Assembly: GCF_988243305.1 (NCBI RefSeq)
Contig: NZ_OZ547136.1
Length of the DNA: 64,000 nucleotides
Strand: one strand, 5' to 3'
Part shown: piece by piece, positions 106 through 46,505 of the stretch
Layout: the number at the start of each line of letters is the position of its first letter
How positions within the stretch are numbered: the stretch's first letter is position 1
Notes under the pieces: model-generated
What the model saw: only the letters and a program-made list of their open reading frames with translations
Databases searched by the model: none
What the model was told of the DNA's origin: nothing
Position numbers and translations under genes: made by a program

Positions 106-588
106 TTACGCATTTTTGTTTGTGGTCAATACAAAATCTTCCAGAAGTTGCTGGCGTTCGCGCTTTCCCCACCAGGTCAACATCCTGGCCATTAATGGCC
201 AGTCAAGTACGGGTTCGGCGTGAGTAAGTAATCGACGTAACTGGACCATATCGGCTGTTCTGTCAGCCCGAATTAATTGAAAGATACGGCGCTCGTTAAT
301 TCTTCCACTATTGGCTAAAGCTCTTCCCAACGAGATACCTGTTGTTTGCTCCGGTTTTTTGTCCTGATGTCGGATGACATTCTTTCCTGCGCTCAGGCAA
401 AACACCATGCGCAAAAGAGCCTGCTGGTGACGTGGGTTTTCCCAACCAAAAGGTTGCACCAACCGATAAAACGCAGGGATATCGCGTAATTCATCAGGTT
501 CTGAAACACGTCTAATTTGCGCACATGCTCCATTATCCAGTTGTTGCCAGGCTCGATATAAAGCCATTGCATCAATTTCATCAGCCAT
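106..588 (-). CDS. casB: CasB/Cse2, Cascade small subunit (160 aa)
   Basis: ORF track 106..588 (-), 160 aa, the recalled length of E. coli CasB; 8-bp overlap with casA end, typical operon coupling. Confidence 0.9.
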   Translation of the reverse strand: MADEIDAMALYRAWQQLDNGACAQIRRVSEPDELRDIPAFYRLVQPFGWENPRHQQALLRMVFCLSAGKNVIRHQDKKPEQTTGISLGRALANSGRINERRIFQLIRADRTADMVQLRRLLTHAEPVLDWPLMARMLTWWGKRERQQLLEDFVLTTNKNA

Positions 589-2089
589 TTGATGGCCCTC
601 CTTGCGGTTTTAACTCCCGTAAATGTTTGTATAGCGTGGCGCGGGCAAGCGCTAATGTGCTTATTAATTTAGGATGATGTGCATAGGGAGCTACAGATTG
701 ATTAAATAGCATTTCACACAATTGATGAAGTTTGTCTCGTAAATCAGCTATTACCTCATCAGCCTGGGAAAAATTAATTTTCGCCAATACATCTGGAATT
801 AATAATTCACTCTGTCGATAGAAATGCCTTTCTGCAGTCTCATGAACAGAGACTCCGGCCCCTTTGAAGTCTTTATTTTTAAACCCTTCTGCAAAGGTAT
901 ATAACGCCTTGCGTAAGGCTGTTTTATACCCCAAACCAACAGTCACTATTTCGTTTATAACATTGCCGTATTGTTGCCACCCCTGATTAAACATCAGCAC
1001 ATCATGACGTCGTTCAAGAATAGATGCTTGATTATTACGATATCCCCCCATAATCAATTCAAGAGGACTTTGCGGCGCAATATTTCTGAATTGATTCACA
1101 ACCGCCGCCACGCGATTTCCATTTTCATTTTGAATAATCTTATCTACCACAACTCGGCTGATTTGCGTCCATGATGGTGCGGAGGTGGTGAAAGCAAGAA
1201 ATTTTTCCTCAACCTTCCCTTTCTTGACTGTTACCAGACAAGGGGAATGCGGATGGGGCCATAGTCCATTAACTGTAAAGGTAAATTTTTCCTTAAGAAA
1301 ACCGGTATAACGCAAATTGCTTTCCTGTCCACAGCAAGAACATTTACCAATCCCAATGGGATCGCATAGTTCAATATGCGCTGGTTGCCAGAATAAACCA
1401 CGGACAAACCCAATTGACGAAGCTGGCACAGATTCATTGGGCTTGATAGGCTTAATCCAGGTAGGTTGGTTTTCCGTATGTAATTCATTGGGAAATTGTT
1501 TTTGAAGACGAGGTATTGTGAGGACATTGAGTAATACCGTCGAGCGAAGATCGATCCCACATACGAAGGTGGTTATAGGTGTTCCTCCACGTAAACCGCT
1601 TTTAAAGCCACCACCAAAACCAGGTGCCTGATTCGCCTGGTTGAATAACGCAATCGCAGTGCATCCACCACATAATGCTTCACCCTGCCCCGGTTGATTG
1701 ACAAATGCACAATTCGTCGCGCCGCTTACCCCAGCCAACAGTTTTTCCATTGGAGTCACATCATTTGCTTTGACACCTTTGGTCTGCATAAAGGGATGTT
1801 CTGCGTGATTAAGGTAGAACATATCTATCCACGGCGCGATGAGTTGTTGAAACTCATCTTCAGTGAGCGGATTCATTATGCGATGTCGAAATTCAACGTC
1901 ATCTTTTGCCGGGGCGATAATTTGTCCAATGCAAACCAGCAGTGCTAAAGCGGCCAGTTCCATATCGTCACGGGGCAAACTTAATCGCCACTGATCTCTA
2001 CTGCAGTATAGCGATTGCAGATTTAGGATTTGGACTTTCCCCCCGTTTCGCGGGCGTACAGGGATCCAGTTATCAATAAGCAAATTCAT
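581..2089 (-). CDS. casA: CasA/Cse1, Cascade large subunit (502 aa)
   Basis: ORF track 581..2089 (-), 502 aa starting MNLLIDNWIPVRPRNGGKVQILNLQSL; length and position between cas3 and casB fit type I-E. Confidence 0.9.
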   Translation of the reverse strand: MNLLIDNWIPVRPRNGGKVQILNLQSLYCSRDQWRLSLPRDDMELAALALLVCIGQIIAPAKDDVEFRHRIMNPLTEDEFQQLIAPWIDMFYLNHAEHPFMQTKGVKANDVTPMEKLLAGVSGATNCAFVNQPGQGEALCGGCTAIALFNQANQAPGFGGGFKSGLRGGTPITTFVCGIDLRSTVLLNVLTIPRLQKQFPNELHTENQPTWIKPIKPNESVPASSIGFVRGLFWQPAHIELCDPIGIGKCSCCGQESNLRYTGFLKEKFTFTVNGLWPHPHSPCLVTVKKGKVEEKFLAFTTSAPSWTQISRVVVDKIIQNENGNRVAAVVNQFRNIAPQSPLELIMGGYRNNQASILERRHDVLMFNQGWQQYGNVINEIVTVGLGYKTALRKALYTFAEGFKNKDFKGAGVSVHETAERHFYRQSELLIPDVLAKINFSQADEVIADLRDKLHQLCEMLFNQSVAPYAHHPKLISTLALARATLYKHLRELKPQGGPSNG

Positions 2090-2504
2090 TTGTTCTCCTT
2101 CATATGCTCCGACATTTCTCCTGCATTTCTATACGTCGGAACACTTCCGTTATCGGTAAAAACAAAGAAAAAATACGGCGTAATTAATTCAATAATCACA
2201 TTCACTGCAAAAATATATTCATTGGTTTAATACAATTAACCTATGCATATATTAAGATGTGTTGAATTGTTTAAAGACAATAATGCATGCATTTCAAATC
2301 TGCAAGTTATTCGTTTTATTATCAAAGAAATTTTTTAGTTATAATAATTACCATAAATTTTATTACATAAAATATTCATACTGTGAATATAAAATCTCAT
2401 ACCGGGAAATTAAAAGAAGATGTACATTGTGCACCTTCCCTACTTAAGTAGGGATAAACCGTTATTGGTCTTGTTATCGTCATTGATACCAATCATTCCC
2501 GAAG
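2090..2504. promoter_or_regulatory. AT-rich cas3-casA intergenic region, expected site of the Cascade operon promoter (H-NS silenced, LeuO activated in E. coli)
   Basis: About 415 bp of strongly AT-rich, curved-looking DNA (runs such as ttattatcaaagaaattttttagttataataattaccataaattttattacataaaatattcatactgtgaatataaaat) directly upstream of casA; promoter identity is from established knowledge of the locus, exact -10/-35 not determined. Confidence 0.5.
2436..2461 (+). repeat. Solitary CRISPR-repeat-like palindrome (TTCCCTACTTAAGTAGGGATAAACCG) 44 bp downstream of cas3 stop
   Basis: Shares 5-prime TTCCC and 3-prime GGGATAAACCG with the I-E repeat GAGTTCCCCGCGCCAGCGGGGATAAACCG; central 16-bp perfect palindrome CCCTACTTAAGTAGGG replaces the repeat stem. 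Confidence 0.45.
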
Positions 2505-5171
2505 TTATTTGGGATTTGCAGGGATGACTCTGGTCATCCCTTCATCCCGAGTGTAGGTAATAACAATATTATTACCCTGCCAGATCCATCCATCCTGATT
2601 CTGTTTCCCTTCCAGCCAAAGTAACCCATCTTCATCTACTACTTCAGAAAAACTACGTTTCCAGGTGAAGGGTACATTGACGCGATTAAGTGCTAACGCC
2701 TCATACTGCTGTTCATGACTTAGGTCCTCGTAGACCTGGCCATCGAGCAGTTGTTTACCTGAAGACGTTTGTACATAAGGCAATAATGGCAGGCTCATTT
2801 CCCCATCCCTCGTTACCGCAAGAATGGTTTCATCGTTATCCTGCAAGCTATATTCTTCAGCCCACTGCAGAACCTTACGAGCCTTGAACCTTTTTTCACA
2901 CTCGGCGCTTTCAAACTTATCCATGCCTTTGATGACCCATTCTGGCTCATCCATTTCCGCATCATCGTAAATGCTATCCAGCCATTGCCGGTAGGCATCA
3001 GGGAAAAATAAGGATGCTCCATTAAGTTCCTCAATATGTTGCTGCGTCCGCCACATGACTCTAACGTTGCTATAAATATGCTCATGTCGTCCGTAACCTT
3101 CGCCATCAGGCAGCAAAATGGTGGCAAGAGGAATCTCAAAACCAACGGGGCGATATTTACGATGATGGCGATGTAAACGGCCCAATCGTTGGAAAAGCAA
3201 ATCTGCGGGACAATGCTGAGTAATTAACCAATCAAAATCAACGTCGAGTGATTGTTCCACGACCTGTGTGGCAACAAGTATTCTTCCAACATTTCGCTCC
3301 CCATTTTTCCCAAAATTACTAATAACACGATTCTCTTTTTCACGGCGATCGTTCAGCGTAAAGCGCGCATGAAACAAATCTATATCTACTTGCGTGTTAT
3401 TTAGTTCCTTTAACCGTTGGTGGCATAGTTGTGCAACATCAACCAAATTGCAGATAAGACAGACTTGTGCACCCGCATTTGCCGCTGCGATCATTCGCTC
3501 TAACATCGTAAGGTCAGGTAACATGTCAGCTAAATAAATAGGTTCTGGCTGAATCGAAAAGCGGGGCGGGAGTTGTTCTGGATGAGCTAACAGATCAAAA
3601 CGTTGCGCACCATTCACACCTCGCCAGTTAATGAGTGGATATGCGGAGTTATTTTCCTCTGGATCTGTATGCAGACCATAAGTATCCAGAAGTTTCTGTT
3701 TTTGTTTCATTGGTAGAGTTGCGGAAAGAAGAATAACACTCCCCCCCACATCAGCCTGAGCCTTGAGCACAGCCTCCAGCAAGCCGTTCATATACGTGTC
3801 GTAAGCATGAACTTCATCAACAATTAAAACACTTCGACCAATTCCCAAACCACGGATAAAGCGGTGTTTAACTGGCAATACCGATATCAACACCTGATCA
3901 ATCGTGCAAACGCCTATTTGCCCAAGAAACACTTTCTTATTGCTTTGTGACAACCATTGGCAACACTGAACCCACGCTTCTTCTTGCCCCTGCTCAGTAA
4001 ATGCGCGTGATTTTATTGATTGAAAAAGGTGGTTAAAACGTGAATTACCATGAGCAAGAATAAGATTTGGGGAGGTAAATAAACGGCTCGCGTTCGCTTC
4101 CATTCTGCTGAGCATTGCATTTGCAGTAGCTTGTGTAGGGAGGGCAAAAATAACACTATCCGCAAGTTGTTGGTCAATAAGTTTCCAGGCATAGGCCAGC
4201 GCTGTTTCGGTTTTACCTGATCCCGTAGGTGCCTCAATCACCGTCAGCCCGGGAGCTGTAGGAAGAGCATCAACCAACACCTGTAATTGTCTTGGTTGAT
4301 AGCCATTGTCCAGTAAGGCATGTACGCCGTCATAACTACGCTTATTTGATACAAGGCCACTCAACTCAAGTACCCGACACGCATCCTGTTGTCTATCCTG
4401 AAAATATTTTCTTAGCGCTTGTATGCCTGAAGGTGCATCTTCTTTGAATAGAAAGGTATCCGTTGTGGTCCAGGAACCTAACCAGTCAGCAAGCGAGCAA
4501 AAACCTGCTAACAATGATGAACAATCAGGTGGTATATCGTTTATAGATAACCCGGCTGGTGTTAAAAATAATGCTTCGAGTACAGATATCCACTCCTCAC
4601 GAGCCTGTTTATCTTGCGCAGCATAAGATGCCAGAGAAGCTGGCATTTCCCAACGCGACTTATCTTGATCCTGGGAATGTAATATAAAACCATGATGTCC
4701 TGTAACGGCCTCTACCCAAGGAAACCAGGACTCATAAGGATGAGGAGCGGCATCAAAAAAACTGAAAAAATCCCCGGGAGATTGCTCTGAAAGTGAATCC
4801 TGGTTAAACCAATACAGACCGGCTGCACCATGATTAAATTTACGGCACATTTGTGTTGATGGACCATTAAGTGATGGCGTTGCAGGATTTAATTTCAGCC
4901 AACTTTCTGCTGATTTATATTGGAATCGTATATCAAACTTTCCGATATCATGAAGGGCAATGAAAAATAACAGCCAGGCTTTCACCTTCTGTTTTGATAG
5001 CATTTCATTTCGGCAAAAAGCATTTTGTAGTACGACTGATTGATCCCACCAGCAATCTGCAACAGCTGCAACATCCAGGCAATGATAAATCAACAGATGA
5101 ATATCATTTCCTTTCGTCAGGCTTTTTGAGGATTTCCCCCAGTAATGACATATATATTTAAAAGGTTCCAT
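2505..5171 (-). CDS. cas3: Cas3 HD-nuclease/SF2 helicase (888 aa)
   Basis: ORF 888 aa; HD motif (ALHDIGKFD), Walker A (APTGSGKTE) and DEVH box (VDEVHAYD) visible in translation. Confidence 0.95.
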   Translation of the reverse strand: MEPFKYICHYWGKSSKSLTKGNDIHLLIYHCLDVAAVADCWWDQSVVLQNAFCRNEMLSKQKVKAWLLFFIALHDIGKFDIRFQYKSAESWLKLNPATPSLNGPSTQMCRKFNHGAAGLYWFNQDSLSEQSPGDFFSFFDAAPHPYESWFPWVEAVTGHHGFILHSQDQDKSRWEMPASLASYAAQDKQAREEWISVLEALFLTPAGLSINDIPPDCSSLLAGFCSLADWLGSWTTTDTFLFKEDAPSGIQALRKYFQDRQQDACRVLELSGLVSNKRSYDGVHALLDNGYQPRQLQVLVDALPTAPGLTVIEAPTGSGKTETALAYAWKLIDQQLADSVIFALPTQATANAMLSRMEANASRLFTSPNLILAHGNSRFNHLFQSIKSRAFTEQGQEEAWVQCCQWLSQSNKKVFLGQIGVCTIDQVLISVLPVKHRFIRGLGIGRSVLIVDEVHAYDTYMNGLLEAVLKAQADVGGSVILLSATLPMKQKQKLLDTYGLHTDPEENNSAYPLINWRGVNGAQRFDLLAHPEQLPPRFSIQPEPIYLADMLPDLTMLERMIAAANAGAQVCLICNLVDVAQLCHQRLKELNNTQVDIDLFHARFTLNDRREKENRVISNFGKNGERNVGRILVATQVVEQSLDVDFDWLITQHCPADLLFQRLGRLHRHHRKYRPVGFEIPLATILLPDGEGYGRHEHIYSNVRVMWRTQQHIEELNGASLFFPDAYRQWLDSIYDDAEMDEPEWVIKGMDKFESAECEKRFKARKVLQWAEEYSLQDNDETILAVTRDGEMSLPLLPYVQTSSGKQLLDGQVYEDLSHEQQYEALALNRVNVPFTWKRSFSEVVDEDGLLWLEGKQNQDGWIWQGNNIVITYTRDEGMTRVIPANPK

Positions 5172-5470
5172 TAATAGCCTCCCTGTTTTTTTAGTATTAT
5201 CGATGATATCAGTGGACTATTTTTCGATGCTGCTCATAAATATCGAATTACAGTGATATACACATGTCTTGCCTCCCTGCAAAGAAGAGACTAACATTCG
5301 AATTGCTTAGGTTCGAACGCTGGCCTCAGGTTGATAGAAATATCGCCTGGGGCTTTTGTCCATCTGGAACCTCGCGAATGCTTAACGCCAGACAGCCTCA
5401 AGCACCCAACGCCATTCTATACCTGATAATTCTTCCAGCGGCGTTCACGTTTAAAATCAGGAATGCTGCT

Positions 5471-12757: not shown

Positions 12758-12870
12758 GTAGGCTGCACGCCACATCCGACATTCAGCGTCTGATGCGACG
12801 CTTGACGCGTCTTATCAGGCCTACAAGTCCCCAGGCCAGAACCGTAGGCAGGATCATCCGGCTGCACGTT
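12758..12870. repeat. Cluster of REP elements (BIME-like) between convergent ygcP and ygcQ
   Basis: Several REP units: gtaggctgcacgccacatccgacatt, tgatgcgacgcttgacgcgtcttatcaggcctacaag, gtaggcaggatcatccggctgcacgtt. Confidence 0.55.
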
Positions 12871-21962: not shown

Positions 21963-22418
21963 TGGTTTATCCCCGCTGGCGCGGGGAACTCCGTCAGTGT
22001 GCCAGTTGCTACTGTTTCCCATACGGTTTATCCCCGCTGACGCGGGGAACTCATCAGTGATATCCAACATTGCGGAGCTAAACGCGGTTTATCCCCGCTG
22101 GCGCGGGGAACTCTATAAATGTGCCATATACGGCGTTTGTTGCCTCGGTTTATCCCCGCTGGCGCGGGGAACTCCTCCCGGTGATGCGGGTTATGTGGCC
22201 TGCCGCCGGTTTATCCCCGCTGGCGCGGGGAACTCTTCGCCGCGTCAACAATTCGGACCTGTAAATCCGGTTTATCCCCGCTGGCGCGGGGAACTCATCC
22301 GGCGAACGCGCTACAGAGTACAGTTCACCGGTTTATCCCCGCTGGCGCGGGGAACTCGGAAACCGCCCCGGCGGTGGTTAGCTGTTTGCCGGTTTATCCC
22401 CGCTGGCGCGGGGAACTC
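21963..22418 (-). CRISPR. Type I-E CRISPR array, 8 repeats (29 bp) and 7 spacers (32 bp each)
   Basis: Plus-strand repeat cggtttatccccgctggcgcggggaactc at 21963, 22024, 22085, 22146, 22207, 22268, 22329, 22390; reverse complement is the canonical E. coli repeat, so crRNA is from the minus strand. Repeat at 21963 starts with t, repeat at 22024 has gctgAcgc. Confidence 0.95.
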
Positions 22419-22560
22419 TCTAAACATAACCTATTATTAATTAATAATTTTTTAAGCCAGTCACAATCTACCAACTTTATAGTATCACACAAACAACACA
22501 TCCATTATGTTAAAGAGCACTTAATCCATTGATTGAAAAGCTAAATATTTAAAGTAATCC
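22419..22560 (-). promoter_or_regulatory. Putative CRISPR leader (AT-rich) adjacent to the newest repeat
   Basis: AT-rich sequence tctaaacataacctattattaattaataattttttaagcc... upstream of the first repeat in the direction of transcription; degenerate repeats lie at the opposite end. Confidence 0.5.
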
Positions 22561-23601: not shown

Positions 23602-24204
23602 ATGCTCAGAATATTCATCGTAATTATATTTATTTTCAATTTATCAGGCTGTGGATATAACGATATTCAAACCTATGATGAGCAGGTTAACGCCTCCTGG
23701 TCTGAGGTATTGAATCAATATCAACGTCGCGCCGATCTTATTCCTAATCTTGTCGCCAGCATTAAAGGTTATTCCAGCCATGAACGAGATGTACTGGAAG
23801 CCGTAACATTGGCTCGTAGCCAGGCTAATCGCGCCAGTAGCGATCTTCAGCAAACTCCGGGCGATGAACAAAAATTACAAGCCTGGCAACAGGCTCAAGC
23901 GCAGGTGACTCGCACTCTCGGTCAGTTAACGATAATTAGTGAGCGTTACCCTGAGTTAAAATCTCAGGAACTCTATCAAAATTTAATGGTACAGCTTGAA
24001 GGAAGTGAAAATCGGATTGCCGTTGCGCGAGGAAGATATATTAAAGCCATTGAACAATATAATGTCACTATCCGCAAATTCCCCGCTGTGTTAACCGCAA
24101 AGGTCATGGATTACACACCAAAGAAAAATTATTTGCCGGATGATGTCGCCGCAGTAAGTAAAGCCCCAACAATAGATTTTAGCCAGAATGCTAATGCTCA
24201 TTAA
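23602..24204 (+). CDS. LemA-family protein, predicted lipoprotein (200 aa)
   Basis: N-terminal signal with lipobox NLSGC (Cys17), followed by a LemA-like helical domain; first gene of a 4-gene operon. Confidence 0.8.
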   Translation: MLRIFIVIIFIFNLSGCGYNDIQTYDEQVNASWSEVLNQYQRRADLIPNLVASIKGYSSHERDVLEAVTLARSQANRASSDLQQTPGDEQKLQAWQQAQAQVTRTLGQLTIISERYPELKSQELYQNLMVQLEGSENRIAVARGRYIKAIEQYNVTIRKFPAVLTAKVMDYTPKKNYLPDDVAAVSKAPTIDFSQNANAH

Positions 24205-24217
24205 GCGGGGAAGTTCT

Positions 24218-25111
24218 ATGCGAAATTTTATCTTCCTTATGGCTTTCTTCTGTTCATCTGTGTTTGCCACACAAATTCCAGTACCTGAATCACCCAAGTA
24301 TGTGAATGACTTAACCGGCACATTAACAAACAGCGAAGTAAACACCCTGACCAACCAGATTAAAGCCCTGACGCAAAAAAACTACGCACAGTTGGTCGTG
24401 TTAGTGGTTGAAACAACTGGCGATGAAACCATCGAGCAGTACGCAACGCGGGTATTCGATAGCTGGAAACCGGGTGATAAAGACCACGATGATGGCGTTC
24501 TACTGTTAGTCGCCTGGCAGGATCATACCGTGCGTATTGAAATCGGTTACGGACTGGAAGGTATTATTACGGATGCACAGTCCGGGAAAATTATTCGCAA
24601 CAGTATTATTCCGGCATTTAAAAAAGGGGACCTGGCTGGTGGTTTGCAAAAGGGAATCAGCGATATTGAAAGTCGTCTGACGGGGAATAATTTAGCAACG
24701 ATAACACCGACCGATCACCCTTTGCCTTTTAGCGGTTGGTGGGCTTTGTTAGTCTGGGCGATAGTACTGACGTTTATTTCTGCCAGAGGATATATCAAAA
24801 CGCTGGGAGTAATTTGCTTCGCAGCTATTGTACTGGCCTTTGTTTTACCTATAGCAGGCTTCAGCGGAAGCTGGGGAGTACTCGCAACATTACTCTGCTT
24901 CGCCACACCGTTCCTGGCTGTCGCCATCGCTTTTACCCCCTTCGGCAAAAAGGTTCGGGATTCGATGCGTGATGCCAACCAGCCATCACGCCATACAAGA
25001 AGCAATTCTTCCTCCCACTATTCATCATCGTCATCCTCTTCATTCAACAATGACAATTTCAGCGGTGGTGGCGGTTCATCTGGTGGCGGTGGCGCTTCCG
25101 GGCGCTGGTAA
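24218..25111 (+). CDS. TPM-domain (YgcG-like) membrane protein, paralog 1 (297 aa)
   Basis: Signal peptide MRNFIFLMAFFCSSVFA, TPM-like core (GVLLLVAWQDHTVRIEIGYGLEG), 3 predicted TM helices, tail ...FSGGGGSSGGGGASGRW; 13-bp gap after lemA stop. Confidence 0.8.
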   Translation: MRNFIFLMAFFCSSVFATQIPVPESPKYVNDLTGTLTNSEVNTLTNQIKALTQKNYAQLVVLVVETTGDETIEQYATRVFDSWKPGDKDHDDGVLLLVAWQDHTVRIEIGYGLEGIITDAQSGKIIRNSIIPAFKKGDLAGGLQKGISDIESRLTGNNLATITPTDHPLPFSGWWALLVWAIVLTFISARGYIKTLGVICFAAIVLAFVLPIAGFSGSWGVLATLLCFATPFLAVAIAFTPFGKKVRDSMRDANQPSRHTRSNSSSHYSSSSSSSFNNDNFSGGGGSSGGGGASGRW

Positions 25112-25125
25112 CAAAAGGAATTGAT

Positions 25126-26274
25126 ATGCGTATTTTTCTCTTACTTCTGATGCTATGCGGTTTTCAGGTATTCGCTGAACAATTGCCTTCAGTAACTGAC
25201 TTAACCGGGACATTAACGACAGAAGAACAAACTGCTTTAACTCAACAATTACAGACTCTCGAGCAGCAAAACCACTTCCAGGTGGCCGTGTTGGTCACGC
25301 CGACCACAGGGGGCAAAAACATTAAACTTGCAGCCTCGCAGAGATACGGGGTATATCACTGGAAACCCGTTGGAGAGAAGCGATATGGCGAAGGTATCTT
25401 AATTCTCGTCGTATGGCCGGAAGGGCTGGCGTCAATGAAGATTGGACATGGACTGGAACAGATGTTGCCGCCGGAACAAGCTTCGCAAATTGTTCGTTAC
25501 CATATGCAGCCAGAATTCGAAAAAAACAATCTCTTTGCTGGATTAACGGGCGGAATTGAAAGCATCGCACAGTTTACCCATATCAAAGCGAACCTTAGCC
25601 CTTTGGATGCTTTAGCCAATCATCTGTTTGCTAATCCGCAACGTTCGCTGCCTTGTCTTGCCTGGACACTGCTGATGATCGTTGCCATCGTTGTCCTCTG
25701 GCGATTTGCCAGCCGCCCAGGGCGTGGCATATGGATGATATCGATGATTACCCCTATGGTCTGGTTTTTCTCCTTTCAGGACGATGTCATCATTCGGCGG
25801 GTATCGGTCGTTTGTTTTAGTTTATTGTTAGCAACAACCTGCAAGCAGCGTCTCGCGGTAGTTTTTAATATGTGCCGCGTATTTCCTATGATGCTGACCC
25901 CAAAAAATAAAAACGCTAAAGTGAAAAAACAAAAGAAGACTCCGCAGGTTCGTGAATCAGGACGAAATTCATTGTTTGTCGTGATGCTGATAATTATTGT
26001 GGGATGGTGCCTGGTGTTCGCCAGTAATAAAGATATTGCATTCATCTCAACAATTATTGGGTTAATTGATCATTTTATCGGCCCAATAACCATTGCTGGC
26101 ATCGTTCTGCTGATCATTGTGGCCAAATTTACTGGCAATCTTAAGCTGGGATCAGGAGAAAAAAGCAACAGGAAAACGGGGAATCGTAATGCTCATTCTC
26201 GCTCTTCGTCGAGAAATTCTTTCCGCGGTGGTGGCGGTTCTTCAGGAGGCGGCGGTTCATCCGGCCGTTGGTGA
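25126..26274 (+). CDS. TPM-domain (YgcG-like) membrane protein, paralog 2, diverged (382 aa)
   Basis: Signal peptide MRIFLLLLMLCGFQVFA, diverged TPM core (GILILVVWPEGLASMKIGHGLE), lysine-rich segment KNKNAKVKKQKK, TM helices, tail RGGGGSSGGGGSSGRW. Confidence 0.75.
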   Translation: MRIFLLLLMLCGFQVFAEQLPSVTDLTGTLTTEEQTALTQQLQTLEQQNHFQVAVLVTPTTGGKNIKLAASQRYGVYHWKPVGEKRYGEGILILVVWPEGLASMKIGHGLEQMLPPEQASQIVRYHMQPEFEKNNLFAGLTGGIESIAQFTHIKANLSPLDALANHLFANPQRSLPCLAWTLLMIVAIVVLWRFASRPGRGIWMISMITPMVWFFSFQDDVIIRRVSVVCFSLLLATTCKQRLAVVFNMCRVFPMMLTPKNKNAKVKKQKKTPQVRESGRNSLFVVMLIIIVGWCLVFASNKDIAFISTIIGLIDHFIGPITIAGIVLLIIVAKFTGNLKLGSGEKSNRKTGNRNAHSRSSSRNSFRGGGGSSGGGGSSGRW

Positions 26275-26279
26275 TCGTA

Positions 26280-27185
26280 ATGCGCTTAATCTTTATTCTA
26301 CTTGCTTTGTGGAGCCTTCCCGGGCTTGCCCAGCAAATTGCTGTGCCGGAGCTGCGCCAACAAGTGACTGATATTACTGGTACGTTAAGCACGTCTGAAC
26401 AGCAATCGCTAACGCAGCAGCTGCAGGATATTACACATAAAACACGGGCGCAGGTCGCTGTATTAGTAGTGCCGTCCACCGGAGACGATTCCATTGAACA
26501 ATATGCAGCACGCGTTTTTGATAGCTGGAAACTGGGAGATAAGCAGAGAAACGATGGTATTTTACTTCTGGTTGCCTGGGAGGAGCATGCTGTTCGTATT
26601 GAGGTTGGCTACGGGCTGGAAGGGGTGGTTACCGACCTGCAAGCGGCGAAGATTATCAGAGATATTTTGATCCCTGCCTTCAAAAGTGATGACCTGATGG
26701 GTGGATTAACACTGGCAAGCGAAAATATCGGCGCGCTTCTGTTGAATGGTGAATTATCGGAAGACAGGGGGGATTATTACAGTATCAATCCCTTTATTCC
26801 ATTATCGCTTGCTGTAATTATATTGCTGGCGGTACTTTCATATTTTATTGTTTTTACCGATCCGTCGAATTTACCCTGGATCACTCTCACTGGCGCCATT
26901 TACGGGATGGTATTCCTCTATGTTGCCGAGCCAGGACCATGGACCAATTTAATCGTTGCCTGCGGTATGCTCACGCCTTTTGCCATCGTACCACTGCTTA
27001 TTTTTTGGCTTATCGTTAATAAAAAGCTACGCGCTAAATACAAGAAGCTCGGTAAAGAAAGAGCTTCAAGAAAAGGTTCTTCTTCATCCTCTTCCGGTGG
27101 CGGCTCAAGTGGCGGAGGCTCAGGCGGTGGCTTTAGCGGCGGGGGCGGTTCTTCTGGCGGTGGCGGCGCGTCCGGTCGCTGGTAA
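26280..27185 (+). CDS. ygcG: TPM-domain membrane protein, paralog 3 (301 aa), probable counterpart of K-12 ygcG
   Basis: Signal peptide MRLIFILLALWSLPGLA, TPM core (GILLLVAWEEHAVRIEVGYGLEG), TM helices, tail GGGGSSGGGGASGRW; last gene before the terminator hairpin and eno, the position ygcG holds in K-12. Confidence 0.75.
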   Translation: MRLIFILLALWSLPGLAQQIAVPELRQQVTDITGTLSTSEQQSLTQQLQDITHKTRAQVAVLVVPSTGDDSIEQYAARVFDSWKLGDKQRNDGILLLVAWEEHAVRIEVGYGLEGVVTDLQAAKIIRDILIPAFKSDDLMGGLTLASENIGALLLNGELSEDRGDYYSINPFIPLSLAVIILLAVLSYFIVFTDPSNLPWITLTGAIYGMVFLYVAEPGPWTNLIVACGMLTPFAIVPLLIFWLIVNKKLRAKYKKLGKERASRKGSSSSSSGGGSSGGGSGGGFSGGGGSSGGGGASGRW

Positions 27186-27203
27186 CTCAACCATAAAAAA
27201 TGC

Positions 27204-27217
27204 CAGCCCGAAGGCTG
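27204..27217. repeat. Target-site duplication (left copy) of IS4 insertion, CAGCCCGAAGGCTG
   Basis: Identical 14-bp sequence directly flanks both IS4 ends (also 28644-28657); the true duplication may be 13 bp given the palindromic target. Confidence 0.8.
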
Positions 27218-28643
27218 TAATGCCGATCAGTTAAGGATCAGTTGACCGATCCAGTGGCTGTGTAAGAATCCGGAAACGCTCACTTGTTTCCGGATTTTTT
27301 TATGCACATTGGACAGGCTCTTGATCTGGTATCCCGTTACGATTCTCTGCGTAACCCACTGACTTCTCTGGGGGATTACCTCGACCCCGAACTCATCTCT
27401 CGTTGCCTTGCCGAATCAGGTACTGTAACGCTACGCAAGCGCCGTCTTCCCCTCGAAATGATGGTCTGGTGTATTGTTGGCATGGCGCTTGAGCGTAAAG
27501 AACCTCTTCACCAGATTGTGAATCGCCTGGACATCATGCTGCCGGGCAATCGCCCCTTCGTTGCCCCCAGTGCCGTTATTCAGGCCCGCCAGCGCCTGGG
27601 AAGTGAGGCTGTCCGCCGCGTGTTCACGAAAACAGCGCAGCTCTGGCATAACGCCACGCCGCATCCGCACTGGTGCGGCCTGACCCTGCTGGCCATCGAT
27701 GGTGTGTTCTGGCGCACACCGGATACACCAGAGAACGATGCAGCCTTCCCCCGCCAGACACATGCCGGGAACCCGGCGCTCTACCCGCAGGTCAAAATGG
27801 TCTGCCAGATGGAACTGACCAGCCATCTGCTGACGGCTGCAGCCTTCGGCACGATGAAGAACAGCGAAAATGAGCTTGCTGAGCAACTTATAGAACAAAC
27901 CGGCGATAACACTCTGACGTTAATGGATAAAGGTTATTACTCACTGGGACTGTTAAATGCCTGGAGCCTGGCGGGAGAACACCGCCACTGGATGATACCT
28001 CTCAGAAAGGGAGCGCAATATGAAGAGATCAGAAAACTGGGTAAAGGCGATCATCTGGTGAAGCTGAAAACCAGCCCGCAGGCACGAAAAAAGTGGCCGG
28101 GACTGGGAAATGAAGTGACAGCCCGCCTGCTGACCGTGACGCGCAAAGGAAAAGTCTGCCATCTGCTGACGTCGATGACGGACGCCATGCGCTTCCCCGG
28201 AGGAGAAATGGCGGATCTGTACAGTCATCGCTGGGAAATCGAACTGGGATACAGGGAGATAAAACAGACGATGCAACTGAGCAGGCTGACGCTGAGAAGT
28301 AAAAAACCGGAGCTTGTGGAGCAAGAGCTGTGGGGTGTCTTACTGGCTTATAATCTGGTGAGATATCAGATGATTAAAATGGCGGAACATCTGAAAGGTT
28401 ACTGGCCGAATCAACTGAGTTTCTCAGAATCATGTGGAATGGTGATGAGAATGCTGATGACATTGCAGGGCGCTTCACCGGGACGTATACCGGAGCTGAT
28501 GCGCGATCTTGCAAGTATGGGACAACTTGTGAAATTACCGACAAGAAGGGAAAGGGCCTTCCCGAGAGTGGTAAAGGAGAGGCCCTGGAAATACCCCACA
28601 GCCCCGAAAAAGAGCCAGTCAGTTGCTTAACTGACTGGCATTA
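27218..28643 (+). mobile_element. Insertion sequence IS4, complete (1426 bp)
   Basis: Imperfect terminal inverted repeats TAATGCCGATCAGTTAAGG (27218-27236) and TAATGCCAGTCAGTTAAGC (reverse complement of 28625-28643); single 442-aa transposase ORF; 1426 bp matches the recalled IS4 size; flanking direct repeats. Confidence 0.9.
27302..28630 (+). CDS. insG: IS4 transposase (442 aa from [14 protein letters not shown])
   Basis: ORF track 27284..28630; recognised as IS4-family transposase sequence. Confidence 0.88.
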
Positions 28644-28684: not shown

Positions 28685-29998
<1,314 letters not shown>

Positions 29999-30069: not shown

Positions 30070-31722
<1,653 letters not shown>

Positions 31723-31934
31723 TTAGGTTGAAAAGACGATGGAATAACCAGGACGGGAAAGCAGTATACCCGAACATGACCTGTGCCACAAACTTTCATT
31801 ATCCCTCCTCTTCGCCAGCGCACTATTGAAATCAGGAGTGAGAAAATAGCCCCTTTGGGGTAAATGTTTTTGACGCAAATCAAGCGCTTGTCATTTAAAA
31901 AATGACACAAATCGCGCTTGACCACGTAATTCCC

Positions 31935-32726
31935 TTAGAGATCAATTTCCTGCCGTTTTACCTGTTGCCAGACTTCTTCCATTGTTTCGAGGTCAACACC
32001 TGTCATTTCCAGTCCACGCGCGGCAACAATACGCTCCACTTCGCGAAAACGACGCTCGAATTTTTCGTTCGCTTTTTGCAATGCGATTTCCGCTTTTGTC
32101 CCTAAATGACGAGCCAGATTGACCGTGGCAAACAGCAGGTCGCCCATTTCCTCCTCCAGTTTAGCCTGGTCGATAACAGCCTGCCGTGCCTCGTACATCA
32201 CCTCGTCGATCTCTTCGTAGACTTTATCGACTACCGGACCAAGCGTCGTCCAGTCAAAACCAACGTTGGCGCAACGTTTCTGGATTTTTTGCGCACGCAT
32301 TAAAGCCGGTAAACTACGAGGAATATCGTCCAGCGCCGAATGCTGCGCTTTCTGCGCGCGCTCTTCGGTTTTGATTTGCTCCCAACGGGCAAGCACTTCA
32401 CTACTGTTTTCGGCAGAACTGTCAGCAAAAACATGCGGATGGCGACGTTCTAATTTATCGCTGATCGCGGCGCATATATCATTAAAGTCAAAGCGCCCTT
32501 CTTCCTGAGCCATTTGTGCGTAAAACACCACCTGGAACAGCAGATCGCCCAGTTCACCGCGAAGATCGTCAAAATCTTCACGGGCGATGGCGTCCAGCAC
32601 CTCGTAGGTTTCTTCAAGGGTGTAAGGCGCAATGGTGGCAAATGTCTGCTCTTTATCCCACGGGCAGCCGTTTTCCGGATCGCGCAGGCGCTGCATGATG
32701 GTGAGCAAACGGTCGATTTGATTCAT
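31935..32726 (-). CDS. mazG: Nucleoside triphosphate pyrophosphohydrolase MazG (263 aa)
   Basis: 263 aa ORF downstream of mazF in the relA-mazEFG arrangement. Confidence 0.92.
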   Translation of the reverse strand: MNQIDRLLTIMQRLRDPENGCPWDKEQTFATIAPYTLEETYEVLDAIAREDFDDLRGELGDLLFQVVFYAQMAQEEGRFDFNDICAAISDKLERRHPHVFADSSAENSSEVLARWEQIKTEERAQKAQHSALDDIPRSLPALMRAQKIQKRCANVGFDWTTLGPVVDKVYEEIDEVMYEARQAVIDQAKLEEEMGDLLFATVNLARHLGTKAEIALQKANEKFERRFREVERIVAARGLEMTGVDLETMEEVWQQVKRQEIDL

Positions 32727-32797
32727 TAGAATGTCCTGAAAATTGCGGGTCTGTCAGGTGGAAACCTGTGACCAGAATAGAAGTGAGTTAGTAACAC

Positions 32798-33133
32798 CTA
32801 CCCAATCAGCACGTTAATTTTGGCTTTAATGAGCTGTAATTCCTCTGGGGCAACCGTTCCTTTCTTCGTTGCTCCTCTTGCCCGCCAGGCGATACTTTTT
32901 ACCTGATCAGCTAACGCTACGCCATCACGTTCCTGACCGGATAAAACAACTTCGAACGGATATCCTTTTGATTGCGTTGTACAAGGAACACACAGACACA
33001 TACCTGTTTTGTTGTTGTACATGAACGGACTCAGGACAACAGCCGGACGATGTCCGGCTTGCTCGCTACCTTTTGTCGGGTCAAAATCAACCCAAATCAG
33101 ATCGCCCATATCGGGTACGTATCGGCTTACCAT
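32798..33133 (-). CDS. mazF: MazF toxin, ACA-specific mRNA interferase (111 aa)
   Basis: 111 aa [39 protein letters not shown]...; overlaps mazE by 1 bp. Confidence 0.93.
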   Translation of the reverse strand: MVSRYVPDMGDLIWVDFDPTKGSEQAGHRPAVVLSPFMYNNKTGMCLCVPCTTQSKGYPFEVVLSGQERDGVALADQVKSIAWRARGATKKGTVAPEELQLIKAKINVLIG

Positions 33134-33381
33134 TACCAGACTTCCTTATCTTTCGGCTCCCCCCAGTCGATATTCTCGTGGAGGTTTTCCGGCGTGATGT
33201 CGTTGACCAGTTCAGCAAGCGTAAATACGGGCTCTTTACGCACTGGCTCAATAATTAATTTGCCATCCACCAGGTCAATCTTCACTTCATCATCAATATT
33301 CAGATTGAGCGCCTGCATTAACGTAGCCGGGATCCGCACCGCCGGTGAATTTCCCCAACGCTTTACGCTACTGTGGATCAT
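33133..33381 (-). CDS. mazE: MazE antitoxin (82 aa)
   Basis: 82 aa [31 protein letters not shown]... (AbrB/SpoVT-like fold). Confidence 0.93.
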
Positions 33382-33458
33382 AACCCTTTCCTCAAACCGC
33401 TATCATATGTAGATACAGTATATATCAATCTACATTGTAGATACGAGCTAATTTCGGC
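33382..33458 (-). promoter_or_regulatory. mazEF promoter/operator region with alternating palindrome
   Basis: Sequence tatcatatgtagatacagtatatatcaatctacattgtagatac contains inverted repeats (atgtagat / atctacat) directly upstream of mazE. Confidence 0.45.
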
Positions 33459-35693
33459 CTAACTCCCGTGCAACCGACGCGCGTCGATAACGTCTGGCAC
33501 CTGATTGAGTTTACCCAGCACGCGGCCCAGCACTTGCAGATTGTAAATCTCAATGGTCATGTCGATAGTCGCCAGTTGCTGTTTAGTGTCGCTACGGCTG
33601 GCAACGCCAAGCACGTTCACCTTCTCGTTGGCAAGAATGGTCGTGATATCACGCAATAATCCACTGCGATCATTGGCCATCACCCGGACCACCAGCGAAT
33701 ATCCGGCGGAGTAGCTCTCACCCCATACCGCGTCAACAATGCGTTCTGGCGCATGGGAGCGCAGTTCCGCCAGTTGTTCGCAATCGGCGCGGTGTACTGA
33801 AATACCGCGTCCCTGGGTAATGAAGCCGACAATCTCATCTCCAGGAATCGGCTGACAGCAGCGCGCGATGTGGTGCATCAGGTTGCCGACACCTTCTACC
33901 ACCACACGACCGTTATCTTTACTGCGGTTTTGCGGCGTATAGCTTTTTTGCTGAAGTTGCTTCAGCGCGGCGGCATCCTGCTCTTCGGCACTCGGCTTAT
34001 TAAATTGCGATTGCAGGAAGTTCACCATCTGATTGAGACGGATATCCCCGCCACCAATTGCCGCCAGCAACTCGTCGACATCATTGAAGTTGTAACGCGG
34101 CAGCAGATGTTTTTCTGCTTCTTTCAGGCTGATCCCCAGATGTTCCAGCTCGTCGTCAAGGATTTGCCGCCCAGCCAGAATGTTTTTGTCACGGTCCTGT
34201 TTACGGAACCAGGCGTGAATTTTCGAACGCCCACGGCTGGTTGTGACGTAACCGAGGTTTGGGTTTAACCAGTCACGGCTGGGGTTCGGCTGTTTCTGGG
34301 TGATAATTTCAATCTGGTCGCCCATCTGCAGCTGGTAGGTGAACGGCACAATGCGCCCGCCAATTTTTGCCCCGATGCAGCGGTGTCCGACATCACTGTG
34401 GATGTGGTAAGCGAAGTCCAGCGGTGTTGATCCCGCAGGCAAATCAACGACATCACCTTTCGGCGTAAAGACGTACACCCGGTCGTCAAAGACCTGGCTA
34501 CGTACTTCGTCGAGCATTTCGCCGGAATCAGCCATCTCTTCCTGCCACGCAATCAGTTTACGCAGCCAGGCAATCCGGTCTTCATGTCCCGAACGTGCGC
34601 CGCCAGCTGCCGCGCCCTCTTTATATTTCCAGTGCGCAGCAACACCCAACTCTGCATCTTCATGCATCTGTTTAGTGCGGATTTGGATCTCAACGGTTTT
34701 GCCACCTGGTCCCAGAACCACGGTATGAATAGACTGATAACCGTTTGGTTTCGGGTTAGCGACGTAATCGTCAAACTCATCCGGCAGGTGGCGATAGTGA
34801 GTGTGCACTATCCCCAGTGCGGCATAACAATCCTGTAAACGCTCGGCGACAATACGTACCGCACGCACATCAAACAGCTCATCGAAGGCGAGGTTCTTTT
34901 TCTGCATTTTGCGCCAGATGCTGTAGATGTGTTTCGGACGACCATACACTTCAGCTTTAACGCCTTCAGCTTTCATCTCAGCGCGCAGATGGCCGACAAA
35001 CTCTTCGATATAGTGTTCGCGGTCGAGACGGCGTTCATGCAGCAGTTTTGCGATGCGTTTGTATTCGGTCGGGTGGAGATAACGGAAGCAGTAATCTTCC
35101 AGCTCCCATTTCAGTTGTCCAATCCCAAGACGGTTCGCCAACGGCGCGTAGATATTGGTGCACTCTTTTGCCGCCAGTACGCGTTCATCTTCCGGCGCGT
35201 CTTTTACTTCGCGCAGATGAGCAATACGCTCTGCCAGTTTGATGACCACGCAGCGAAAATCATCGACCATCGCCAATAACATCCGGCGAACGTTATCGAC
35301 CTGTTCGGAGGAAACAGAATCGGTATGCGTCGCTTTCAGCTGGCGGATCGCCGCCATATCACGCACGCCGTGAATAAGGTTAACGACCGACTTACCGACG
35401 CTCTCACGCAGCACATCTTCGCTGACTACGTTGGCATCCGCCAGAGGGAACAGCAGCGCCGCCCGCAGCGTGTCAATGTCCATACTTAATGTCGAGAGGA
35501 TCTCCACCATCTCAACACCACGCCACAATAACAGACTGGCATCCGGATGCCCCTGCGTCTGTTGCAGACAATACGCCCAGGTTTCGGCTAAGCACTCACA
35601 CGACTTCTGGCTGGTAATACCCAGACTTGCGATCCATTTTTCCGGATCAAATTCACCAGCCTTATTGATATGTGCACTTCTTACCGCAACCAT
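33459..35693 (-). CDS. relA: GTP pyrophosphokinase, (p)ppGpp synthetase I (744 aa)
   Basis: 744 aa ORF with RelA/SpoT synthetase domain, TGS and ACT regions. Confidence 0.97.
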   Translation of the reverse strand: MVAVRSAHINKAGEFDPEKWIASLGITSQKSCECLAETWAYCLQQTQGHPDASLLLWRGVEMVEILSTLSMDIDTLRAALLFPLADANVVSEDVLRESVGKSVVNLIHGVRDMAAIRQLKATHTDSVSSEQVDNVRRMLLAMVDDFRCVVIKLAERIAHLREVKDAPEDERVLAAKECTNIYAPLANRLGIGQLKWELEDYCFRYLHPTEYKRIAKLLHERRLDREHYIEEFVGHLRAEMKAEGVKAEVYGRPKHIYSIWRKMQKKNLAFDELFDVRAVRIVAERLQDCYAALGIVHTHYRHLPDEFDDYVANPKPNGYQSIHTVVLGPGGKTVEIQIRTKQMHEDAELGVAAHWKYKEGAAAGGARSGHEDRIAWLRKLIAWQEEMADSGEMLDEVRSQVFDDRVYVFTPKGDVVDLPAGSTPLDFAYHIHSDVGHRCIGAKIGGRIVPFTYQLQMGDQIEIITQKQPNPSRDWLNPNLGYVTTSRGRSKIHAWFRKQDRDKNILAGRQILDDELEHLGISLKEAEKHLLPRYNFNDVDELLAAIGGGDIRLNQMVNFLQSQFNKPSAEEQDAAALKQLQQKSYTPQNRSKDNGRVVVEGVGNLMHHIARCCQPIPGDEIVGFITQGRGISVHRADCEQLAELRSHAPERIVDAVWGESYSAGYSLVVRVMANDRSGLLRDITTILANEKVNVLGVASRSDTKQQLATIDMTIEIYNLQVLGRVLGKLNQVPDVIDARRLHGS

Positions 35694-35740
35694 CGTCCTC
35701 TCCTTTAGGGACCAGACCTGCCGAAATCGGCAAATCGTAA

Positions 35741-37042
35741 CTATTTAACGCGCGAGAAAAGTACCATCGATTCCAGATGTCCCGTGTGTGGGAACATATC
35801 CAGCATCGCCAGTCGCGCAATGGTATATCCTGCTTTTAATAACGCTTCGCTATCCCGAGCCAGCGTTGCAGGGTTACAGGATACATAAACTATACGAATA
35901 GGTTCCAGTTTTATAATTTGCTGCATAACACCTGCGGCACCTGCTCGCGCGGGGTCCAGCAACACTTTATCGAAGCCGTTTTTCGCCCACGGCTGCTTTG
36001 TGACATCTTCTTCAAGATTTTCGTGATAAAACGTCACATTGTGTAAGTCATTAAGACGCGCATTCTGCTGGCCTTTTTCCACCAGCGCCGGAACACCTTC
36101 TACACCCACCACACTGGCAGCTTGTGTCGCCAATGGCAGTGTAAAGTTGCCCATACCGCAGAACAGATCCAGTACGCGATCTTCAGGTTGCACATCCAGC
36201 CATTCCAACGCACACGCTACCATTTTTTGGTTCACACCCGCATTGACCTGAATAAAATCGCGCGGGCTAAAAGTTAAGCGCAACCCGTTTGAGTCATACC
36301 AGGGCATCTCACCAGCGACGGTTTCGAGTATCTCACTATCGGGGGCGAGATACAGATCCAGGCCTTCAGAATGCGAAAAGCGTTCCAGTTTTTCGCGATC
36401 TGCCGAACTTAGCGGTGCGGTATGGCGCAAAATCATCAGCGTGCCGCTGGTTGCCTGTACCAGTTCAACATGACCAAGATGGCGCATAGCTTGTAAGCTG
36501 CCCAGGCATGCCCTGACTTTGGGCAGCAATGCTTCAAGTTGGGGCACTAAAATGGGGCATTGTTTAACGTCGACAATGTCACTGGAGCCCGCTTTGCGAA
36601 AGCCCATCTGAAGTTGCTGTGTTTTCGGTAAGTAGTTCAAACTTAAACGCGCGCGACGGCGATAGCCCCAGGGAACATCGGCGATCACTTCAGAGACCTC
36701 GTGTTTCATTAATCGGGCGAGTGCCGCACTTTTGCTTCGCTGCTGTAAATCCTCGCTGGCGTGTTGTTGCTGACAGCCGCCGCATACGCCAAAATGAGGG
36801 CAGCGTGGCGTTTCGCGTTCCGGGCTATCGCTTAACCGGCGCACGACTTTAGCGCGGGCGTATTGTTTTTTATCTTCAGTAACAGTAACTTCCGCGTTTT
36901 CCTGTGGCAATAATCCAGGAATAAATAACGCTTTGCCGTTATGTCGTGCCACGCCCTGACCAAAAGAGTCGAGGTCGTTGACTGAAACAGTTATGATCTG
37001 ACGCGTCGTCGTGCGTCGTTTTGCAGAGTAGAATTGCGCCAT
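35741..37042 (-). CDS. rlmD: 23S rRNA (uracil1939-C5)-methyltransferase (433 aa)
   Basis: 433 aa ORF; TRAM-like N-terminus and 4Fe-4S cysteines ([11 protein letters not shown]), SAM-MTase C-terminus. Confidence 0.92.
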
Positions 37043-46094: not shown

Positions 46095-46140
46095 AAAGCA
46101 ACCTCAATAAGAAAAACTGCCGCGAAGGATAGCAGGAATA

Positions 46141-46505
46141 AAAAAAGGGAGCACTGTATTCACAGTGCTCCCGGTTCGTTTCGCAGCATTCCAGCTACTT
46201 TTGTTGCTCCCTGCTCATCCTTGACAACTTTTCCTCTGGCCTTGCGGCCAATCGTTCATCCTGAACTATTGCTTCCTGCTCACACCACCCCGATGTGATA
46301 CTTCATCCTGAAGTGTCCCTGGCCTTCCTGACCCACCGAATCATCCTGACCGGTTCTCATTCTCCATCCTGGAGGTGTCCTTTAACGCGTCCTGCGTCAT
46401 CCTCTTCGCTTCATCCAGAAGCCTTTCCCTGAAACACCATCCTGGTGTGTCCTTCAGAAGTGTCATCATCCTGATGTTCACTTCGTTGTCTGACTCCCTG
46501 TCGAC
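46141..46505 (-). ncRNA. csrB: CsrB small RNA (CsrA-sequestering), about 365 nt
   Basis: Minus strand begins GUCGACAGGGAGUCAGACAACGAAG... and carries about 18 CAGGA(U/A)G-type GGA motifs (plus-strand catcctg/ttcctg/tccctg); ends in terminator hairpin gggagcactg-tattca-cagtgctccc plus U-run. Confidence 0.85.

Follow-up and report, generated by a model that had tools for sequence, protein, structure and literature searches.

The mazEF locus of Escherichia coli, also called chpA, is already known and is among the most studied toxin-antitoxin loci. In K-12 it is represented by the gene pair b2783/b2782. E. coli has a paralogue at another locus, chpBS, whose ChpB toxin and ChpS antitoxin come from the same PemK/MazF and AbrB/MazE families; the model scores (ChpB 55 bits, ChpS 35 bits) are nevertheless far under the cutoffs of 129 and 101. 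Plasmid systems such as pemIK and kis-kid (parD) share the toxin fold and family, Kid (PDB 1m1f) being matched with E = 7.6e-09, but most plasmid copies of MazF-family modules are less than 60% identical, and these modules have a plasmid maintenance role and other operators. EndoA/MazF-bs (ydcE) of Bacillus subtilis is matched through PDB 4mdx and 1ne8 at about 4e-05. Its catalytic residues R25 and T48 correspond to R29 and T52 of the MazF described below (PMC8887465), although its sequence is distant, it recognizes the longer motif UACAU and it is paired with an antitoxin of another family. Of these systems, it is the K-12 operon that our locus resembles in practically every respect.

The window, i.e. 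the whole stretch of 64,000 nucleotides that was analysed, carries the pair on its minus strand. The sequence-only reading had placed it between relA and mazG, and indeed four genes of the same strand follow each other there: relA, encoding GTP diphosphokinase or (p)ppGpp synthetase I (33459-35693, 744 aa), mazE, encoding the antitoxin (33133-33381, 82 aa), mazF, encoding the ACA-specific endoribonuclease toxin (32798-33133, 111 aa), and mazG, encoding a nucleoside triphosphate pyrophosphohydrolase (31935-32726, 263 aa). A 77-bp spacer, the promoter/operator region of mazEF, separates relA from mazE (33382-33458, minus strand), and 71 bp separate mazF from mazG (32727-32797, minus strand) without a convincing terminator (RNA fold z = -0.5). 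Further genes on the minus strand are rlmD (35741-37042) on the relA side, pyrG (30070-31707) and eno (28685-29983) on the mazG side, all three taken from the ORF table and the raw sequence; barA lies beyond rlmD on the plus strand. The order rlmD-relA-mazE-mazF-mazG-pyrG-eno is the same as in annotated E. coli genomes in RefSeq. The range 32798-35693, to which the pair had been referred earlier with the strand unstated, consists of mazF, mazE and relA, while mazG is outside it.

The two small genes have exactly the sizes that had been read from the letters, and both the ORF listing and the junction sequence agree with the proposed overlap of 1 bp. The junction reads GGTAATGGTA. In its TAATG, one A (base 33133) both closes the stop codon TAA of mazE and opens the start codon ATG of mazF, which makes the overlap exactly 1 bp. 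[quoted passage not shown]

The identity of the proteins is not in doubt, and the earlier assignment to the MazE and MazF families stands on alignment. In Pfam, the E-values are 3.5e-14 for MazE_antitoxin, 5.9e-24 for PemK_toxin and 2.3e-39 for the MazG domain; MazE scores 52.9 bits against PF04014, MazF scores 84.8 bits against PF02452 (cutoff 23.1), MazG carries PF03819, and RelA has the domains HD_4, RelA_SpoT, TGS, AH/RIS and ACT. All four proteins are also well above the cutoffs of their NCBIfam equivalogs: NF007312 for MazE (196 bits, cutoff 113), NF007386 for MazF (227.4 bits, cutoff 120, over the full length 1-111), NF007113 for MazG (370 bits, cutoff 208) and NF008124 for RelA (1678 bits, cutoff 728). 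Further, the 111 residues of MazF agree to 100% with the solved E. coli chains PDB 3nfc_A and 5ck9_A, as do the 82 residues of MazE with 1mvf_D and 1ub4_C. MazF retains E24, R29 and T52; R29 has been described as the general acid/base and T52 as a stabilising residue of the E. coli enzyme (PMC8887465), and the E24A mutant serves as a control (PMC5888573). The N-terminus of MazE, MIHSSVKRW, contains K7 and R8, the residues that anchor it to DNA (PMC4333400).

At the nucleotide level, mazEF differs from K-12 by seven substitutions, one in mazE and six in mazF, and all of them are synonymous. Hence disrupting mutations in mazF, which were looked for against K-12 as a possible refutation of the original call, are absent. 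Chromosomal toxin-antitoxin loci are frequently degraded, and in E. albertii nothing but fragments is left at the relA-mazG site, so it is fair to ask whether the present copy could be a decaying or inactivated remnant. The chance of this is negligible in our opinion: MazE and MazF are both full length and indistinguishable from active crystallised proteins, the nucleotide changes are silent, and the operator is intact. The comparison of sequences, above all the complete identity of the proteins, rules such a remnant out. We are practically certain that the locus is the canonical, intact mazEF (chpA) type II operon of E. coli in its standard position, and found nothing in the sequence that speaks against it.

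The remaining differences from K-12 are minor. The operator of 50 nt, the overlap of one nucleotide, the 77 bp between relA and mazE and the neighbouring genes are shared, and both Maz proteins are the same; the mazF-mazG spacer, on the other hand, is 70 bp long in K-12 and 71 bp in the window, RelA carries V672M (743 of 744 residues identical) and MazG carries V185I (262 of 263). One of the synonymous changes removes a potential target of the toxin itself. The K-12 operon is reported to have two ACA sites in mazE and nine in mazF (PMC5888573), while the window allele has two and eight, because codon 93 of mazF reads ACG where K-12 has ACA. When 4 kb around the locus served as query, 5425 of the 5426 complete E. 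coli genomes were hit, with the same genes annotated. Identity reaches 99.7% at best and lies between 95% and 99% for most genomes, which indicates that the window comes from E. coli, though not from K-12.

The alternating palindrome that the sequence-only reading had noticed upstream of the pair is also real, and it can be given a more precise meaning. On the coding strand its elements are ATCTACA (33442-33436), ATGTAGAT (33435-33428) and ATCTACAT (33414-33407), the middle one being complementary to both of the others; the repeat search lists two inverted repeats here, I1 and I2. When the 77-bp spacer was shuffled 20000 times, a three-part palindrome with 7-nt arms turned up just 7 times; the palindrome is non-random. 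The term "alternating palindrome" goes back to Marianovsky et al. 2001, as cited in PMC5888573 and PMC4333400. Positions 33398-33447 (minus strand) are identical throughout to nucleotides 1-50 of the 51-nt "cab" oligonucleotide of Zorzini et al. 2015, i.e. the MazE operator with three MazE-dimer sites, the central one being ATATAT. According to that work, three MazE dimers bind to three adjacent sites, and MazF boosts the binding at balanced ratios (PMC4333400). In the alignment the operator is identical to that of K-12, and the only substitution in the spacer is located upstream of it. A consensus scan for promoters and terminators over 31800-35900 gave 2 promoter-like sites, where 3.8 are expected by chance, and neither of them could be matched to the promoters published for mazEF. 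Binding of Fis upstream of the mazEF promoter, with a rise in its transcriptional activity, has also been reported (PMC7167474).

How the operon may work can be described from the literature on K-12, whose proteins and operator are identical to those of the window, and it is from this literature that we infer RNA cleavage, repression, MazE proteolysis and the activity of the antisense RNA. Given its identity to the characterised enzyme, MazF would be an endoribonuclease with the PemK/CcdB fold, cutting single-stranded RNA at ACA. The labile antitoxin MazE would neutralise MazF dimers with its C-terminal tail, keeping the toxin inactive inside a MazF2-MazE2-MazF2 complex, and its N-terminal AbrB-type domain would occupy the three promoter sites, so that the operon represses itself, more strongly when MazF is present at a balanced ratio. 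Degradation of MazE by ClpAP and Lon is then expected to free MazF and to de-repress the operon (PMC5888573; PMC8749433), and MazF may also cleave its own mRNA (PMC5888573). As reported for K-12, the antisense RNA aMEF would act on the mazEF operon, and transcription would probably enter from relA and leave into mazG; co-transcription of mazEFG has been described (PMC5120126).

On aMEF the sequence-only reading was silent. In K-12, RefSeq annotates it (ameF, b4844) as a 400-nt RNA at 2911051-2911450. Transferred by a gap-free alignment, the homologous region occupies 33093-33492 on the plus strand of the window and reaches from the 5' end of mazF across all of mazE and the operator into the 3' end of relA. 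The homology takes in the promoter region that was defined for aMEF in K-12. There is no difference from K-12 between -36 and +67 of the annotated transcription start site; substitutions are found at -37, -49 and -67 relative to the start of aMEF. According to Van Gundy et al. 2022, expression of mazEF is stimulated by aMEF or by its transcription, and only in a mutant of RNase III could the RNA be detected (PMC8749433). By homology, it is likely that the strain of the window expresses aMEF too. A search of 31700-35800 against Rfam with a permissive threshold returned nothing at E <= 1; aMEF is without an Rfam family. A 146-aa ORF that runs antisense to mazEF (32972-33412, plus strand) was considered as a gene and discarded, as its start lies upstream of the one annotated for aMEF and nothing independent speaks for it.

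The distribution of the operon is a separate matter. A query consisting of mazEF only finds it in 4418 of the 5426 complete E. coli genomes. A second query, 201 bp of the relA-mazG junction from a genome lacking mazEF, finds the empty junction uninterrupted in 1007 of the same 5426, and together these make up the 5425 E. coli genomes in which the region exists. Ecol_244 is an annotated strain with such an empty site, its mazG beginning 95 bp after relA. To look outside the species, we sampled Enterobacterales with one genome per species and kept the 80 loci with the best MazG relatives; these include two records labelled "E. coli", E. albertii, Citrobacter, Salmonella arizonae, Klebsiella, Enterobacter, Pantoea, Pectobacterium and others. 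In this sample, 0 of the 80 loci have a homologue of MazE or of MazF in the relA-mazG interval.

Alignment to two empty sites (L003 and L004) reveals the boundaries of the missing segment. Homology breaks off at the stop codon of relA (33460), to start again at 32760-32767, which is 30-38 bp below the mazF stop. Accordingly, a segment of about 690 bp (32768-33459, minus strand), comprising the operator, mazE, mazF and 30 bp downstream, stands in place of a spacer of about 54 bp, and relA ends with Ser-TAG in the window versus Asn-TAA at both empty-site loci. The empty spacer of L004 contains a 12-bp hairpin with a folding energy of -28.9 kcal/mol (RNA fold, z = -6.5), and the first 70 nt after relA reach z <= -2 in 55 of 76 empty spacers, whereas RNA fold found no stable hairpin after relA in the spacer of the window (z of -1.0 to -1.1). 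GC3 is 0.44 in mazF and 0.59 in relA. In our view these data are best explained by mazEF being a horizontally acquired cassette of about 690 bp. It consists of the operator and two genes without a terminator, lies between relA and mazG in the majority of E. coli, though not in all, and stands in place of a spacer containing a hairpin. The data agree with the report that chromosomal toxin-antitoxin pairs travel as promoter-plus-gene cassettes without terminators (PMC5120126). In E. albertii the first 34 nt of the region upstream of mazEF are still there, half of the palindrome among them, as is the sequence just downstream of mazF, with about 160 bp of REP-like sequence in between; judging from this arrangement, it looks like a case of secondary loss.

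What, then, does the position next to relA mean? It had been proposed that the arrangement links the stringent-response synthetase to the toxin-antitoxin module. We agree as far as physical and transcriptional adjacency is concerned, but not that there is an obligatory functional link: roughly a fifth of the complete E. coli genomes have no cassette at this site, nor has any relative that was sampled, and this argues against such a link. The same conclusion has been drawn before, since relA and mazG stand side by side undisturbed where strains lack mazEF, and the position was said to imply "no functional link" (PMC7167474). The opposite opinion is the programmed-cell-death model, in which the neighbourhood of relA represents a dedicated stringent-response circuit: ppGpp made by RelA would stop mazEF transcription, MazE would decay, MazF would kill part of the population and MazG would limit the response. 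Such claims are summarised in PMC1626106 and PMC7167474, and it is true that the genes are adjacent on one strand and that neither the relA-mazE nor the mazF-mazG junction has a terminator-like hairpin. We consider a dedicated circuit improbable nonetheless, given that mazG directly follows relA, with no cassette, at all of those 1007 E. coli junctions and 80 related-species loci. Because the spacer has a history of insertion and replacement, the adjacency to relA is best read as a record of that history and not as proof of a stringent-response circuit. It looks like an accident of insertion rather than functional coupling, and by itself it is not evidence of function.

A different question is why the cassette persists. 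It is conceivable, and we take the idea seriously without favouring it, that mazEF owes its maintenance chiefly to selfish or defensive properties, by addiction to its own locus or by phage exclusion, and not to a role as stress regulator. Its patchy presence and absence within a single species would fit with this, as would the MazF relatives that tblastn finds on 1568 plasmids, the use of the relA-mazG spacer of Buttiauxella by an unrelated module, and the increased P1 infection after deletion of mazEF, as cited in PMC7167474. This proposal, however, concerns the biological role of the locus and is compatible with the canonical mechanism of the operon. The module in Buttiauxella is of the Hcp-DUF4225 type.

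A rather doubtful speculation is that the arrival of the cassette removed the relA-proximal hairpin and left mazG behind a promoter repressed by MazE/MazF and exposed to read-through from relA. Were this true, the main effect might be a rewired expression of mazG, and with it of nucleotide and alarmone housekeeping, in mazEF-positive versus mazEF-negative lineages, and not a control of the toxin by RelA. The proposal is a modest one and is partly anticipated by the literature on polar effects on mazG.

With regard to novelty, aMEF, the presence/absence polymorphism and the replacement of the hairpin-containing spacer, three points that the sequence-only reading does not mention, have all been published already in substance. 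The gain is a clean annotation of the window, with its genes, the operator, a likely antisense RNA and the boundaries of the cassette. As for the rest of the window, Tandem Repeats Finder was run over its whole length with a minimum score of 80 and returned nothing; a CRISPR array, missed by this program, was seen in the window by a repeat search.

The mazEF cassette, that is the operator with mazE and mazF between relA and mazG, is a presence/absence polymorphism within E. coli. It is carried by 4418 of the 5426 complete E. coli genomes, and relA runs uninterrupted into mazG in 1007 of them. We compared the cassette region of the window (32768-33459) with two empty-site loci (L003 and L004), where relA and mazG lie together without mazEF, and with a further comparison locus, L083. 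The end of relA itself differs between the two states, since its last codon and stop are Ser-TAG in the window versus Asn-TAA in both empty-site loci.

In E. albertii (L005) sequence comparison revealed a remnant of the mazEF site at 4740-4933. The first 34 nt of the mazEF upstream region are still present, with half of the alternating palindrome of the operator; they are followed by about 160 bp of REP-like sequence and then by sequence normally found 3' of mazF. This arrangement suggests that E. albertii lost the mazEF genes secondarily.

It seems that the relA-mazG spacer is a recurrent insertion site. In Buttiauxella agrestis (L042, 3341-4928) it holds a different small module made up of genes for Hcp, a DUF4225 protein and a 109-aa membrane protein, and in Superficieibacter (L016, 4566-4904) it holds a 112-aa membrane ORF, which is weakly similar to the Buttiauxella membrane protein (29% identity, E = 0.003). 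Among the empty spacers of L003-L082, 55 out of 76 have a markedly stable hairpin (fold score z <= -2) no further than 70 nt from the relA stop, which may act as a terminator, be a REP-like element or stabilise the mRNA; RNA folding found no such stable hairpin in the 70 nt after the relA stop of the mazEF-positive window.

On the opposite strand, a homologue of aMEF (ameF), the antisense RNA annotated across mazE in K-12, lies at 33093-33492 (plus strand), where it overlaps the 5' end of mazF, all of mazE, the operator and the 3' end of relA. The sequence-only reading did not include this element. Its core promoter region is identical in the window and K-12, and the substitutions nearby are three, at -37, -49 and -67. 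Within mazF, codon 93 (32855-32857) reads ACG instead of ACA, a synonymous change that leaves the gene one ACA self-cleavage site short of the nine in K-12.

Elsewhere, the window starts with cse2, cse1 and cas3 of a Type I-E CRISPR-Cas system (106-5171, minus strand). The last of these, cas3 (2505-5171), is directly adjoined by a sok antitoxin RNA (5251-5407, minus strand; Rfam, 104 bits), in other words by a type I toxin-antitoxin locus of the chromosomal hok/sok kind. A repeat search placed a CRISPR array (at least eight repeats of GGTTTATCCCCGCTGGCGCGGGGAACTC with a 61-nt period) apart from the cas genes, at 21964-22431, adjoining queE. In the queE-eno interval of the window lie lemA, three genes with TPM domains and Gly/Ser-rich tails, and a transposase of the IS4 family (23602-28630, plus strand); strain 7/2, the closest complete genome, has only ygcG there. 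Strain 7/2 carries IS1397 after ygcP (L001, 3725-5156), which the window lacks at the corresponding place (about 12802-12805). The small RNA CsrB is matched over its full length at 46137-46496 (minus strand; Rfam, 383 bits).
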